Source of the DNA: a virus
Taxonomy: Duplodnaviria > Caudoviricetes
Reading direction: 5' to 3' (one strand)
DNA: 45,108 nucleotides
IMG/VR virus record: IMGVR_UViG_3300012942_000014
Coordinates: 1 to 45,108 of that record
A model generated the notes under the pieces. That model did not search any database and had not been told where the DNA came from. It was given only the letters and a program-made list of their open reading frames with translations. The first letter of the stretch is position 1, and each line of letters opens with the position of its first letter. Positions 541-4,149 of this stretch are shown here, piece by piece. The translations under genes and the position numbers were made by a program.

Positions 541-617
541 TGGTGTCCTCGGTAAGTTTCGAACTCACGACCTCCTGGGCTTCAACCAGGCGCTCTCACC
601 ATCTGAGCTACAAGGAC
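541..617 (-). tRNA. trnF: tRNA-Phe(GAA)
   Basis: Cloverleaf, anticodon arm CCTGG-TTGAAGC-CCAGG, encoded CCA. Confidence 0.95.
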
Positions 618-621
618 TAAT

Positions 622-711
622 TGGTGGTAGGACTGGGATTCGAACCCAGGGTGGCTTGCACCACTCTTGTTTTCAAGACAAGTGCACTCGGCCAGACTAT
701 GCGACCCTACC
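622..711 (-). tRNA. trnS: tRNA-Ser(TGA)
   Basis: CTTGT-CTTGAAA-ACAAG, long variable arm, CCA. Confidence 0.95.
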
Positions 712-714
712 TTA

Positions 715-789
715 TGGTTCCGGTGCTAGGACTCAAACCTAGATAACAAGGCTCAGAACCTTGCGTCCTATCAATTAGACGACTCCGGA
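715..789 (-). tRNA. trnQ: tRNA-Gln(CTG)
   Basis: CAAGG-TTCTGAG-CCTTG; T-loop TTTGAGT; CCA. Confidence 0.9.
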
Positions 790-793
790 TTAT

Positions 794-869
794 TGGTTCT
801 CAGGGAACGGTTCGAACGTTCGACATTCAGGTTCAAAGCCTGACGACTCTACCACTGGTCTACCTGAGA
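794..869 (-). tRNA. trnQ: tRNA-Gln(TTG)
   Basis: TCAGG-CTTTGAA-CCTGA; CCA. Confidence 0.92.
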
Positions 870-896
870 TTATTTTGTACGCCAGTGAAGCTGGCT

Positions 897-982
897 TGGA
901 GGAGGGCTACGGTACCGACCCGTATGGAGTGACCCACGTACACCTTAGCACGATGTCCTCAGACCTTCTGAGTTAACCCTCC
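897..982 (-). tRNA. trnS: tRNA-Ser(GCT), atypical T-loop
   Basis: ACATC-GTGCTAA-GGTGT, long variable region, T-arm TACGG-GTCGGTA-CCGTA, TCCA end. Confidence 0.8.
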
Positions 983-1188
983 AGGCTCTTTATACCTAGG
1001 AGTTCAAAGACTCTTCTGTGGTAGTCTCCCTTTCTCTTTGTTTCTCCAGTGTCTCTGTAGGTAAGGAGCACTGGAACTCCTGCTATGTCACATTTCCTGG
1101 TGAACTTTCCATCTACTATAGAACTAGATTTAATCCCGTAGATGGTACCAGCCATACCAAGTCCTCTGATGAGTACAATCTCCCACAT
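973..1188 (-). CDS. Hypothetical protein inserted in tRNA array
   Basis: 71-aa ORF with AGGGAGG RBS filling the gap between tRNA-Trp and tRNA-Ser. Confidence 0.55.
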   Translation of the reverse strand: MWEIVLIRGLGMAGTIYGIKSSSIVDGKFTRKCDIAGVPVLLTYRDTGETKRKGDYHRRVFELLGIKSLEG

Positions 1189-1257
1189 TTAACTGCAACC
1201 TCCCTTCTTATACAATATGCTTCCTTTCTAACCTAGACAGCTAGTCAGGCTAAGTCT

Positions 1258-1329
1258 TGGCAGACCTGGTAGGTAACGCTCCCACAGCTAGAGGGTTTGG
1301 AATCCTCCGCAGCACTTTGCCTCAAGTCC
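1258..1329 (-). tRNA. trnW: tRNA-Trp(CCA), short D-arm and atypical T-loop
   Basis: GAGGA-TTCCAAA-CCCTC; T-arm GTGGG-AGCGTTA-CCTAC; GCCA end. Confidence 0.8.
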
Positions 1330-1333
1330 GTAT

Positions 1334-1431
1334 TGGTGAATCCGTTGGGAGTCTAACCCAAACTCCATACCTCTTTTCACAAGCACAACCAGGTTACTTT
1401 GACTGTATGGAACTGCACAGTTATCGGACTC
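1334..1431 (-). ncRNA. 98-nt tRNA-like / mini-tmRNA (TLD-only)-like RNA
   Basis: Acceptor GAGTCCG/CGGATTC with G3.U70, ACCA end, T-arm TTGGG-TTAGACT-CCCAA, 8-bp stem TTCCATAC/GTATGGAG enclosing a 34-nt loop instead of a 7-nt anticodon loop. Confidence 0.7.
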
Positions 1432-1434
1432 ATA

Positions 1435-1509
1435 TGGTGGGTTCTGAAGGAATCGAACCTTCATGGATTGGTTAAGAGCCAACTATTCTAGCCGTTGAAC
1501 TAAGAACCC
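1435..1509 (-). tRNA. trnK: tRNA-Lys(CTT)
   Basis: GTTGG-CTCTTAA-CCAAT; CCA. Confidence 0.93.
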
Positions 1510-1737
1510 GTGATTACATTTGCCCACTGCTCTCGTAGTAAGGGCACAGTTGGTACAGTATATTCTTACATAGTTGCCGTACTTTACTGGTATGAAGAGG
1601 TCTAGCATCTCATCACAGCAGAAGCATCTAGGTCTACCATACTCGTTCTTATATTCGGCTATGAAGTTACGATTGAGTAACCCTGGCTTTACTATAACAC
1701 GTGCTGGTAGACTAGAACTATGTCTTATTATACTCAT
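1483..1737 (-). CDS. Small Zn-ribbon protein within tRNA array
   Basis: CFCC...CTNC motifs; AAGGA RBS just after the tRNA-Ala CCA; 3' end overlaps tRNA-Lys. Confidence 0.55.
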   Translation of the reverse strand: MSIIRHSSSLPARVIVKPGLLNRNFIAEYKNEYGRPRCFCCDEMLDLFIPVKYGNYVRIYCTNCALTTRAVGKCNHGFLVQRLE

Positions 1738-1747
1738 ACTTTCCTTT

Positions 1748-1822
1748 TGGTGGAGTAACAGTGAATCGAACACTGATGAATACCTTGCAAAGGTATCATA
1801 ATAACCGTTATATGATTACCCC
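1748..1822 (-). tRNA. trnA: tRNA-Ala(TGC)
   Basis: ATACC-TTTGCAA-GGTAT; G3.U70; CCA. Confidence 0.93.
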
Positions 1823-1827
1823 AATAT

Positions 1828-1903
1828 TGGTGACCGCGCCAGGCATTGAACCCGGTTCTCTACCTTGAGAGGGTAGTGTCCTAACCGTATAGACGATGCA
1901 GCC
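1828..1903 (-). tRNA. trnE: tRNA-Glu(CTC)
   Basis: CTACC-CTCTCAA-GGTAG; CCA. Confidence 0.92.
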
Positions 1904-1908
1904 ATGCT

Positions 1909-1982
1909 TGGTGCACACTGAGTGAGTCGAACACTCGACATCTGATTGGAAGTCAGATATTTTACCGCTAAACTAAGCGTGC
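1909..1982 (-). tRNA. trnG: tRNA-Gly(TCC)
   Basis: TCTGA-CTTCCAA-TCAGA; CCA. Confidence 0.93.
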
Positions 1983-1988
1983 ATGATT

Positions 1989-2064
1989 TGGTGCTACCCT
2001 TCGGATTCGAACCGAAACCTGAGGGCTTAGAACACCCTTGTACTATCCGTTATACTAAGGTAGC
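1989..2064 (-). tRNA. trnR: tRNA-Arg(TCT)
   Basis: AGGGT-GTTCTAA-GCCCT; CCA. Confidence 0.9.
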
Positions 2065-2068
2065 GTAT

Positions 2069-2146
2069 TGGTGGCCCCAGTAAGATTCGAACTTACACTT
2101 TACAGGGTTTAGGTCTGTTGCCTCTGCCTAATTGGGCTATAGGGCC
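2069..2146 (-). tRNA. trnL: tRNA-Leu(TAA), short variable arm, C33
   Basis: ACAGA-CCTAAAC-CCTGT; Leu-type D-loop GGCAGAGGC; CCA. Confidence 0.8.
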
Positions 2147-2220
2147 TGGAACCCCGAGAGGGAATCGAACCCTCGAAAGCAGTTTTGCGGGCTGCCGGGT
2201 AGCCATTCCCCATTCGAGGT
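2147..2220 (-). tRNA. trnC: tRNA-Cys(GCA), C33
   Basis: GCAGC-CCGCAAA-ACTGC; U73 discriminator; CCA. Confidence 0.85.
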
Positions 2221-2230
2221 ATATTATCTT

Positions 2231-2317
2231 TGGTACCGTTTGAGGGAATCGCACCCACTCGACCCAGGGGGACTTGTTTTACAGACAAGCGTGCCTTCTT
2301 TAACACATTAAAACGGC
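2231..2317 (-). tRNA. trnY: tRNA-Tyr(GTA)
   Basis: CTTGT-CTGTAAA-ACAAG; long variable region; atypical T-arm; CCA. Confidence 0.85.
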
Positions 2318-2319
2318 TC

Positions 2320-2396
2320 TGGTGCCTCCCGAGAGATTCGAACTCTCACTGACGTGGTTCTAAGCCACGGTCCTCTGCCAGTTGGGATAGAGAGGC
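2320..2396 (-). tRNA. trnL: tRNA-Leu(TAG), short variable arm
   Basis: CGTGG-CTTAGAA-CCACG; CCA. Confidence 0.9.
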
Positions 2397-2403
2397 ATAT
2401 TCT

Positions 2404-2480
2404 TGGTCAGAGTAGCAGGACTCGAACCTGCGTTCTCTATGTTCCAAACATAGCGGATTAACCAGCTTTCCTATACTCTG
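2404..2480 (-). tRNA. trnP: tRNA-Pro(TGG)
   Basis: CTATG-TTTGGAA-CATAG; C1-G72; CCA. Confidence 0.93.
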
Positions 2481-2482
2481 AT

Positions 2483-2557
2483 TGGTCCCCACGAGACGGC
2501 TCAAACGTCTGATACAGAGTCAACAGCTCTGCGTGTTATCAACTACACTACACGGGG
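2483..2557 (-). tRNA. trnN: tRNA-Asn(GTT), G37
   Basis: CAGAG-CTGTTGA-CTCTG; T-loop TTTGAGC; CCA. Confidence 0.85.
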
Positions 2558-2563
2558 TTGTTT

Positions 2564-2639
2564 TGGGGTGCCCAACTGGTATTGCGCCAGTGTCTCCTCC
2601 TTCACAGGGAGGCGTGGTGACTTCTCCACTATAGACACC
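2564..2639 (-). tRNA. trnH: tRNA-His(GTG)
   Basis: G-1:C73; CCTCC-CTGTGAA-GGAGG; T-loop CGCAATA. Confidence 0.88.
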
Positions 2640-2642
2640 ATA

Positions 2643-2717
2643 TGGTCCCGACAACCAGAATTGAACTGGTGACTTAAGCCTGACAAGCTAATGTTATAAC
2701 CACTTAACTATGCCGGG
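2643..2717 (-). tRNA. trnD: tRNA-Asp(GTC)
   Basis: TTAGC-TTGTCAG-GCTTA; CCA; A73. Confidence 0.85.
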
Positions 2718-2721
2718 TTAC

Positions 2722-2797
2722 TGGTGCTCACAGTCGGATTCAAACCGACGTTCCCATGGCTGAAAACCAAGTATCCTAATCACTAGATGATGTGAGC
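2722..2797 (-). tRNA. trnE: tRNA-Glu(TTC)
   Basis: CTTGG-TTTTCAG-CCATG; T-loop TTTGAAT; CCA. Confidence 0.88.
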
Positions 2798-2800
2798 GTT

Positions 2801-2874
2801 TGGAGCTGGATTAGGGTGCCGCCCCCTAGTCGGTAGTTTACAAAACTACTGCTCTACTGTTGAGCTAAACCAGC
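2801..2874 (-). tRNA. trnT: tRNA-Thr(TGT), atypical T-loop
   Basis: GTAGT-TTTGTAA-ACTAC; T-arm TAGGG-GGCGGCA-CCCTA; TCCA. Confidence 0.85.
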
Positions 2875-2883
2875 GAATATATT

Positions 2884-2958
2884 TGGTGTCTCGATAAGGA
2901 TTTGAACCTTAACTAATAGTTTCGAAGACTAGTGTGCTATCCATTACACTATCAAGAC
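2884..2958 (-). tRNA. trnR: tRNA-Arg(TCG)
   Basis: CTAGT-CTTCGAA-ACTAT; CCA. Confidence 0.9.
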
Positions 2959-2961
2959 TTA

Positions 2962-3037
2962 TGGTAGCACCTAAAGGATTCGAACCTTTGACCGCCTCTG
3001 TGTAAAAGAGGAACTCTAGCCACTGAGTTAAGGTGCT
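2962..3037 (-). tRNA. trnV: tRNA-Val(TAC)
   Basis: CCTCT-TTTACAC-AGAGG; CCA. Confidence 0.93.
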
Positions 3038-3040
3038 TCA

Positions 3041-3115
3041 TGGTAAGGGATAAAGGAGTTGAACCTTTGTTGGCACTGTATAAGAATGCTGTCCTAACCG
3101 TTGGACGAATCCCTA
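3041..3115 (-). tRNA. trnI: tRNA with TAT anticodon (Ile-UAU), U1xU72 mismatch
   Basis: GCATT-CTTATAC-AGTGC; acceptor TAGGGAT/ATCCCTT; CCA. Confidence 0.85.
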
Positions 3116-3119
3116 TTAT

Positions 3120-3193
3120 TGGTCGGCTACCAAGGTAATGCTCCTCGGCCTTCTGTGTATCGGACAGATGCTCTACTTTTAAGCTAGTAGCCG
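3120..3193 (-). tRNA. trnI: tRNA-Ile(GAT), C33, atypical T-loop
   Basis: TCTGT-CCGATAC-ACAGA; T-arm CGAGG-AGCATTA-CCTTG; CCA. Confidence 0.82.
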
Positions 3194-3196
3194 TTA

Positions 3197-3272
3197 TGGT
3201 GCACCCTGTAGGAGTTGAACCTACTCTGTACTGCTTAAAAGGCAGTTGCCTTGACCGTTCGGCATAGGATGC
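3197..3272 (-). tRNA. trnK: tRNA-Lys(TTT)
   Basis: ACTGC-CTTTTAA-GCAGT; CCA. Confidence 0.9.
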
Positions 3273-3278
3273 TAAACT

Positions 3279-3353
3279 TGGTTGCTCCCCCCAGAGTTGC
3301 ACTGGGTCCTGAACCTTATGAGGGTTCCGAGATTACTGATTCTCCAGGGAGCA
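3279..3353 (-). tRNA. trnM: tRNA-Met(CAT)
   Basis: GAACC-CTCATAA-GGTTC; T-loop TGCAACT; CCA; lacks the initiator GGG/CCC anticodon stem. Confidence 0.85.
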
Positions 3354-3384: not shown

Positions 3385-3412
3385 ATTGTACACACATTTA
3401 TACTGGTGTCAA
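3385..3412 (-). promoter_or_regulatory. Promoter of tRNA operon, followed by a strong hairpin (~3356-3383)
   Basis: TTGACA-16-TACAAT; then ATAGGTCAGGTA-GAGA-TACCTGGCCTAT before tRNA-Met. Confidence 0.7.
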
Positions 3413-4149
3413 GCGTAGATGAACCCTATAAAGGAACTTATTGACCTAGTGTCGTAATGTACGACTCCTAGTCCGCCATTATAATTCATCTCAGACAGGT
3501 TTACTGTACCATTCCCATTTACGGAAGTTACTACCACAACGTGTCCTACTTGAACGCCTATAGAGCCTGCAACTGGAATACTACTTACGGTGAAGCCAGA
3601 TGCCGAAGCATTGACTAACCAGGAGTATCCAGCGTCTCCCCAGTAGCCTCCAATGTCAGGTTTAACATTCTTGACATACCAGGTACAGTTACCCCACGCA
3701 TACCCGTTAGATGAGTAGTTACTCGTCTTTTGGGCTATCGTCCCATATAGAGGCTCTGATGAGCTCACAGGGGCATATATAGCGGGTCTATCCTGTAGAG
3801 ATTCTGACTCTGTTGGTATAGTGACTACATCCCCGACGTTTATGATGTCCTGGTTATGTAGCTGTGTGTTCTTATCCCATAATCGCTGCCAGGTCGTATT
3901 GAACTGTTCTGCGATAGAAGTAAGACTGTCTCCTTCTTGCACCGTATAAGTCATAATCTTGGGTACCTTCTCTACTACTTTTGGAGTAGTACTATCTTTG
4001 GCAGGCTCCTTGATAACGAATGGACTGTCTGTGCTTCTTACTAATAAATTAGTTGTAGGGGTCGTATCCAGTAAGCTTAGGGCACTTGCCTGGGTGGGAA
4101 CCAATAGTGCGATGCCTATAGATACTAATAGTTTGAGTTTATAGCTCAT
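3409..4149 (-). CDS. Secreted LysM + CHAP peptidoglycan hydrolase
   Basis: Signal peptide (..TQASA|L), LysM (YTVQEGDSLTSIA...INVGDVVTIP), CHAP (YAWGNCTWYV, GHVVVV, LSEMNY). Confidence 0.9.
   Translation of the reverse strand: MSYKLKLLVSIGIALLVPTQASALSLLDTTPTTNLLVRSTDSPFVIKEPAKDSTTPKVVEKVPKIMTYTVQEGDSLTSIAEQFNTTWQRLWDKNTQLHNQDIINVGDVVTIPTESESLQDRPAIYAPVSSSEPLYGTIAQKTSNYSSNGYAWGNCTWYVKNVKPDIGGYWGDAGYSWLVNASASGFTVSSIPVAGSIGVQVGHVVVVTSVNGNGTVNLSEMNYNGGLGVVHYDTRSISSFIGFIYA

Follow-up and report, generated by a model that had tools for sequence, protein, structure and literature searches.

Unexplained tRNA-like RNAs in phage tRNA arrays date from RNA C and RNA D of T4 and the stable RNAs of T5. 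As annotated in GenBank, RNA1, RNA2, RNA3 and RNAI of T5 and RNA C and D of T4 are non-decoding, tRNA-shaped molecules of 73–144 nt encoded between tRNA genes, and in several of them an acceptor-like stem as well as a T arm can be recognized. A tmRNA without a coding sequence is found in the Mycobacterium phage DS6A (JN698994, L277:979-1061). It is shorter than 100 nt, carries G3·U70, A73 and a T arm, lacks a D stem, and has a helix with a short insert in place of the message domain. According to two papers, tmRNA is inhibited by this "TLD only" RNA or one like it, perhaps through titration of SmpB (PMC4131195, PMC11915505). The SmpB contacts in cryo-EM are U17, G19 and A334, and the G19C change is cited as abolishing trans-translation (PMC8363625). 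For bacterial alanine tRNAs, the set listed in Table 1 of PMC9976931 comprises A73, G2-C71, G3·U70 and G4-C69, with G3·U70 as the major AlaRS determinant. Here, we describe a 98-nt anticodon-less tRNA-like RNA gene (hereafter the element) in the tRNA array of a phage, which both ARAGORN and Rfam miss.

The window, meaning the whole stretch analysed, is the complete virus record IMGVR_UViG_3300012942_000014 of 45,108 bases, with direct terminal repeats at its ends and genes for terminase, portal, capsid and tail proteins and an amidase. The LysM-CHAP protein encoded at 3409-4149 has its best relatives in genomes named as Saccharibacteria, and several tRNAs of the array have the same unusual T loops as the tmRNAs of that order; on these two grounds the host is likely a member of the Saccharibacteria. 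Besides the element and two small ORFs, the array (541..3353, minus strand) comprises 27 tRNA genes, which together serve all 20 amino acids. All 27 tRNAs were detected by a stem scan, whereas ARAGORN found 22 and Rfam 23, missing four. Directly upstream of the array lies a candidate sigma-70-type promoter-like site (3385..3412, minus strand), proposed on consensus only, with 11 of 12 consensus matches. Among five records of related phages with 78% capsid identity, three, two of them complete, have a single tRNA-Trp and none has an array; they thus offer no orthologous position for comparison, and the tRNA block of the present phage was apparently acquired. The related phages L001 and G003-G005 are about 45 kb long with tRNA-Trp as their only tRNA; in L001, this gene directly follows the LysM-CHAP gene, which is the site of the 27-tRNA array in the present phage.

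The array has some further features of its own. It encodes a tRNA-Ile with a UAU anticodon (3041-3115) and a tRNA-Arg(UCG) (2884-2958), both on the minus strand, and just one CAU tRNA. Such a pattern is known from organisms without the lysidine and inosine modifications, and it may reflect host decoding. Non-canonical T loops like those of the host-order tmRNAs occur, all on the minus strand, in tRNA-Ser(GCU) (897-982, GUCGGUA), tRNA-Trp (1258-1329, AGCGUUA), tRNA-Thr (2801-2874, GGCGGCA) and tRNA-Ile(GAU) (3120-3193, AGCAUUA). ARAGORN and Rfam both miss tRNA-Ser(GCU) as well as tRNA-Trp(CCA), which combines A8 and a short D arm with its odd T loop. One small ORF (1483-1737, minus strand) has CFCC and CTNC motifs, lies between tRNA-Ala and tRNA-Lys(CUU), and overlaps the latter with its end; a homologue and family search with this cysteine-rich ORF was empty. 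A second orphan ORF is located at 973-1188.

The element occupies 1334..1431, as an earlier sequence-only reading had placed it, on the minus strand. Its upstream neighbor is tRNA-Lys(CUU) (1435..1509, minus strand) across a 3-nt spacer, and its downstream neighbor is tRNA-Trp(CCA) (1258..1329, minus strand) across a 4-nt spacer, which is the usual tRNA spacing in the array. The acceptor 5' strand GAGUCCG (1425..1431; G1, A2, G3, U4) forms 7/7 pairs with CGGAUUC (1338-1344) at pair probabilities of 0.95–1.0, and the 3' part (1334..1344) supplies U70, the discriminator A73 and an encoded CCA. These acceptor features and A8 are all present as first described. Next comes the 13-nt D-loop-like segment AUAACUGUGCAGU (1412..1424), in which there is no GAC motif. 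Its G14-U15 (1418-1417) likely corresponds to the G18/U19 of the elbow, given the U19/A56 covariation in ordinary phage tRNAs, and matches the loop of the 5-bp T arm UUGGG-UUAGACU-CCCAA (1345..1361, with A56). In place of the anticodon arm, UCCAUAC (1405..1411) pairs with GUAUGGA (1364..1370), which is followed by the element's own G69 and U70 with no GAC linker. This central stem has 7 Watson–Crick pairs, 8 with the terminal U20·G69, which recovers the 8-bp stem reported before, and 9 with G19·U70. It encloses a weakly structured 34-nt loop (1371..1404) that contains no U33-type anticodon loop.

The sequence-only reading had allowed at most a weak D stem. A pairing of AACU with AGUU (3–4 bp, 4-nt loop) permits a cloverleaf at −16.7 kcal/mol, and the D-stem-less fold is more stable at −20.8 kcal/mol. 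The unconstrained minimum free energy structure breaks the T arm, and the tRNA-like fold lies at most 1 kcal/mol above it. The helices of the tRNA-like fold have pair probabilities of about 0.45–0.48, against 0.95–1.0 for the acceptor. In the inner part, the tRNA-like form and a competing fold, which is lower by less than 1 kcal/mol, are thus about equally populated. The fold z-score of the whole element is only −1.17. As drawn from the sequence, the analysis shows an intact tRNA top half, comprising acceptor, CCA, T arm and U19-A56 elbow, in which a long stem and a 34-nt loop stand for the anticodon arm.

Two of these features, A8 and U19-A56, had been taken as marks of tmRNA, and both turned out to be generic. 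A8 occurs in 3/27 tRNAs of the array. The loci retrieved contain 439 distinct tRNAs; in an elbow survey of the 357 that could be parsed, A56 went with GU in 34/39 and C56 with GG in 304/307. The U19-A56 swap fits this tRNA rule and suggests an intact elbow in the element, the position of the pair being inferred, and it has no bearing on tmRNA kinship.

When the phage was scanned for an acceptor with G3·U70, a T arm and ACCA, only tRNA-Ala and the element matched, and the same joint pattern gave 0 matches in 300 first-order Markov resamples of the 45 kb; the pattern is therefore not due to chance. Judged by its sequence and setting, the element is a genuine gene in the tRNA array. It might still be a neutral or decaying tRNA paralogue, which arose by a 27-nt insertion or a deletion-insertion and is simply carried in the array. 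This would suit a singleton with an unstructured loop and an acceptor off the GGG start, and when the element was aligned, with gaps, to tRNA-Lys(UUU) of the array, it outscored 299/300 base shuffles. The same alignment is ordinary when compared with real tRNAs and other elements, and an origin from tRNA-Lys(UUU) was rejected as unproven. Decay also accords poorly with helices that are fully paired (7+5+7 pairs), with the intact CCA and elbow swap, and with the presence of similar elements in other arrays. Nor is there a near copy in the array: the best anchored identity to array tRNAs is 22/34, against 17–26 for unrelated array tRNAs, and it is likewise at most 22/34 to host tmRNAs. We consider a neutral origin unlikely.

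The closest ordinary molecule is tRNA-Ala. The separate tRNA-Ala(UGC) that had been noted was confirmed at 1748..1822 on the minus strand and is the sole other G3·U70 gene in the array. Bacterial and phage tRNA-Ala (RF00005) share with the element G1-C72, G3·U70, A73, CCA, the T arm and the elbow pair, and one odd phage tRNA-Ala(UGC) (L021, L126) has A8 and a 17-nt T arm identical to that of the element, although 11 of these nucleotides were forced by the search pattern. Unlike tRNA-Ala, the element has no anticodon loop, no stable D stem and no RF00005 match, although Rfam also misses four of the array's 27 tRNAs, and its acceptor deviates from the GGG start seen in 16/18 alanine tRNAs. Of the four members of the bacterial alanine set it keeps A73 and G3·U70, while G2-C71 and G4-C69 are replaced by A2-U71 and U4-A69. 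To speak of "the AlaRS identity elements", as was done at first, was thus correct for G3·U70 and A73 and overstated for the set. Charging with alanine is plausible from these bases, but its efficiency may be low, since G2-C71 and G4-C69 are broken. The G3·U70 pair could even be incidental, as the search pattern forced U70 and also returned long tRNA-like RNAs with A3-U70. These RNAs (L046, L145, L220) are 122–133-nt genes with long inserts that adjoin tRNA genes, and they indicate that such long tRNA-like RNAs are not all of the alanine type.

An ordinary tRNA with a removable intron had been named as the case that would overturn the first interpretation. Without 27 nt the element would be 71 nt long, and it could be drawn as a cloverleaf whose anticodon stem has 5 bp and whose variable loop has 4 nt. 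However, no splice gives an anticodon loop: 0/8 cuts that leave a 7-nt loop on a 5-bp cloverleaf stem give U33, among single deletions within nt 21–71, none that yields a 70–78-nt RNA with a 5-bp stem gives a Y32-U33 loop, and the element, spliced or unspliced, has no NGC anticodon in a 7-nt loop with U33. All 20 amino acids are already covered by the array as well. An intron-bearing tRNA is therefore hardly credible.

Kinship with tmRNA, as suggested by the sequence-only reading, was not supported. The Rfam models for tmRNA, permuted tmRNA, mitochondrial tmRNA and tRNA gave no match to the element at E up to 5, and two further searches with RF00023 (E up to 0.5 and 10) gave none either. This model is able to detect tag-less domains, because it scores the DS6A RNA at 43.2 bits and two phage mini-TLDs, L024 and L205, at 54.1 and 54.3 bits. 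Weak RF00023 scores are uninformative, as ordinary tRNAs also reach about 14–34 bits. In the likely host order, 32 tmRNA loci (all parsed, one unpublished genome left out) have GAC within nt 15–24 in 32/32 and GAC before the T stem in 32/32, and G2-C71, G3·U70 and G4-C69 are invariant (32/32). At the two GAC sites the element has GCAGU in the D loop and AGU immediately ahead of the T stem. Compared with the SmpB contacts, it offers a G at 19 in one register and the linker A in no register.

These results bear most directly on the idea that the element is a tag-less tmRNA domain like that of DS6A, though diverged, which would bind host SmpB and inhibit trans-translation. Its spacing is compatible with tmRNA (A8, 13–14 unpaired nt, no stable D stem, a long helix, and 2–3 nt before the T stem), and DS6A is a precedent (PMC4131195, PMC11915505). 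The factors to be blocked are available in the likely host order, with tmRNA in 51/61 genomes (a tally that includes one unpublished genome) and SmpB in 5/5. Against this stand the missing RF00023 match, the loss of both GAC motifs, and the coexistence of GAC-less look-alikes with full tmRNAs; moreover, a search of the phage for smpB found none. A role as an SmpB decoy is thus distinctly unlikely, and from its sequence the element is less likely to be a miniature tmRNA than a tRNA decoy without decoding function.

Two observations were made along with the tmRNA survey. The Saccharibacteria-order tmRNAs (L361-L364, L386-L414) are mostly without the D-loop GG and have odd T loops; ARAGORN missed 4/4 of those tested and Rfam finds them. 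A 94-nt RF00023 match in the host-order genome G067 (L415:1948-2041, 44.4 bits) was rejected, as it is actually a tRNA-Tyr(GUA)-type gene. This gene has a tmRNA-like acceptor with G3·U70 and A73, and it might encode a mischarging tRNA or be a chimera formed at an integration site.

A minimal tmRNA had also been proposed; a working one would add the tag (A)KVTWLCL or (A)WLCL. The reading frame VKVTWLCL does exist in the loop, with 8 codons and a UGA stop, and CAGUC and GUAACC precede in-frame codons, which we take to be loosely like a resume motif. However, when the loop is shuffled 20,000 times, 30% of the products also contain a frame of at least 8 codons with a stop, so that its presence is at chance level. 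The eight host-order tags that were read differ from it, starting with an alanine resume codon about 80–90 nt in and having 22–31 residues and alanine-rich ends. No tag frame with an alanine resume codon, proteolysis tail or pseudoknot ring was found in the element, whose insert is 34 nt; SmpB motifs are missing, and the look-alikes have no frame in common. A working tmRNA of this size is scarcely conceivable.

The loop could instead be the functional part. Engineered tRNA scaffolds have an architecture similar to that of the element, and the mostly single-stranded loop might be stabilized and displayed by a natural tRNA top half as an antisense guide or a protein ligand. The loop folds no better than expected, as 73% of 1000 shuffles fold as well. 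Elsewhere in the phage it has no exact match longer than 11 nt, a length also reached by 92/200 shuffles. Paired with 10 of the 32 host tmRNAs, it has a duplex energy of −21.4 against −20.7 ± 1.0, with 12/40 shuffles as good. No match to the loop was found in 401 host-order genomes, and the inserts of the look-alikes have no sequence in common. A scaffold of this kind is improbable.

Homologue searches gave no close relative of the element. None was found with an exact 28-nt pattern and a two-part pattern, by blastn against 50,697 GenBank phage records, or by sequence look-up, and an A2-U71-type pattern gave none among 120 of about 770 matches. In another search only the tRNA-Lys part matched, among the best 40 of 179 matches, and a DNA search of the 401 host-order genomes placed one of 53 matches in the element (21 nt, E 0.008). 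Patterns built on an A56 T loop, U70 and ACCA gave at least 239 matches, one pattern contributing 121 of about 190; at least 124 of the 239 have a full T stem. At least 17 distinct G3·U70 elements of up to 130 nt, which include the present phage's own copy (L039), are not called by ARAGORN. The pattern searches returned shape look-alikes on other contigs. Five of them (L002, L006, L086, L101, L169) are 87–104 nt long, lack the GAC motifs, score below the Rfam gathering score and adjoin tRNA genes; L086 and L169 retain a D stem. What the look-alikes have in common is their shape and the bases forced by the pattern, not their sequence, and their inserts have no common sequence and no common frame. 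A search with L101 gave one 26-nt match, inside a portal gene. L023, L146, L229 and L243 appear to be missed or odd tRNAs.

Two of five whole records, G412 (with L006) and G413 (with L155, 82 nt), encode not only a GAC-less look-alike but also a tmRNA of full length, scoring 116 and 117 bits, and a UGC tRNA-Ala-type gene. Because of this coexistence, the look-alikes are not shrunken copies of the phage's tmRNA. The comparison points to the GAC-less look-alikes being a class distinct from tmRNA, which is defined by shape rather than by a demonstrated common origin. DS6A-type tag-less tmRNA domains of 79–81 nt were also found (L024:445-525, L205:447-525, L007:547-625). Two of these, L024 and L205, keep UUCGAC and GGAC and exceed the RF00023 cut-off, while L007 keeps the linker GAC only.

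With DS6A the element shares a phage origin, a length below 100 nt, G3·U70, A73, a T arm and a helix with a short insert, and its more stable fold likewise has no D stem. The DS6A RNA alone has GGGG, the D-loop UCGAC and the Rfam tmRNA score, whereas the element alone has A2-U71, U4-A69, the U19-A56 elbow, an open 34-nt loop and a place within a full tRNA array. Sequence comparison suggests that the DS6A RNA is the nearest functional precedent and that the element does not belong to the DS6A type. It would fit better with T4 RNA C and D and T5 RNA1-3, being equally non-decoding, tRNA-shaped and located between tRNA genes. Those RNAs differ in having no G3·U70 acceptor, structured extra arms and, by inspection, no evident sequence likeness, which makes this a resemblance of kind.

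The best explanation is that the element yields an RNA cut from the array transcript and charged with alanine, which does not decode but diverts host factors as a tRNA decoy; we give this a probability of about 0.45. Among the three options of the sequence-only reading, the anticodon-less decoy fits best. The element would be co-transcribed from the array promoter and excised by host tRNA-processing enzymes, giving a stable, processed and probably alanine-charged RNA. AlaRS charges independently of the anticodon. The retention of G3·U70 would therefore give such an RNA the simplest route to charging and to carriage by EF-Tu. In the least certain step, the decoy would sequester host factors by which the acceptor end and the elbow are recognized, and so would shield the phage tRNA pool, for example from tRNA-directed defence enzymes. 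Candidate enzymes of this kind act on tRNA ends. The decoy reading is supported by the tRNA-like spacers, the promoter-like site, the full pairing, the elbow rule and the recurrence of look-alikes. It is weakened by the lack of a close homologue, the partial alanine set and the alternative fold within about 1 kcal/mol, and the case for the present element is that of one sequence without close relatives.

It is very improbable that the element is an SmpB-independent rescue RNA, whose alanylated top half would be delivered by EF-Tu while the stem and loop replace SmpB or the anticodon arm in the A site. Once host defences had destroyed tRNAs and ribosomes had stalled as a result, such an RNA would accept their nascent chains. 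If this were true, the GAC-less elements beside full tmRNAs in other phages would be a third class of translation RNA.

No title or abstract among the papers searched, mostly non-subscription ones, dealt with GAC-less alanine-type mimics in phage arrays; the tmRNA database of PMC11915505 may hold relatives. Neither ARAGORN nor Rfam detects the genes for such mimics. The class has been little described and is easily tested, while the boldest readings of the present copy lack support. A recurring alanine-type anticodon-less class distinct from tmRNA would offer a testable handle on the tRNA-like RNAs of phage arrays, through charging, EF-Tu and SmpB binding, and tRNA-directed defences.
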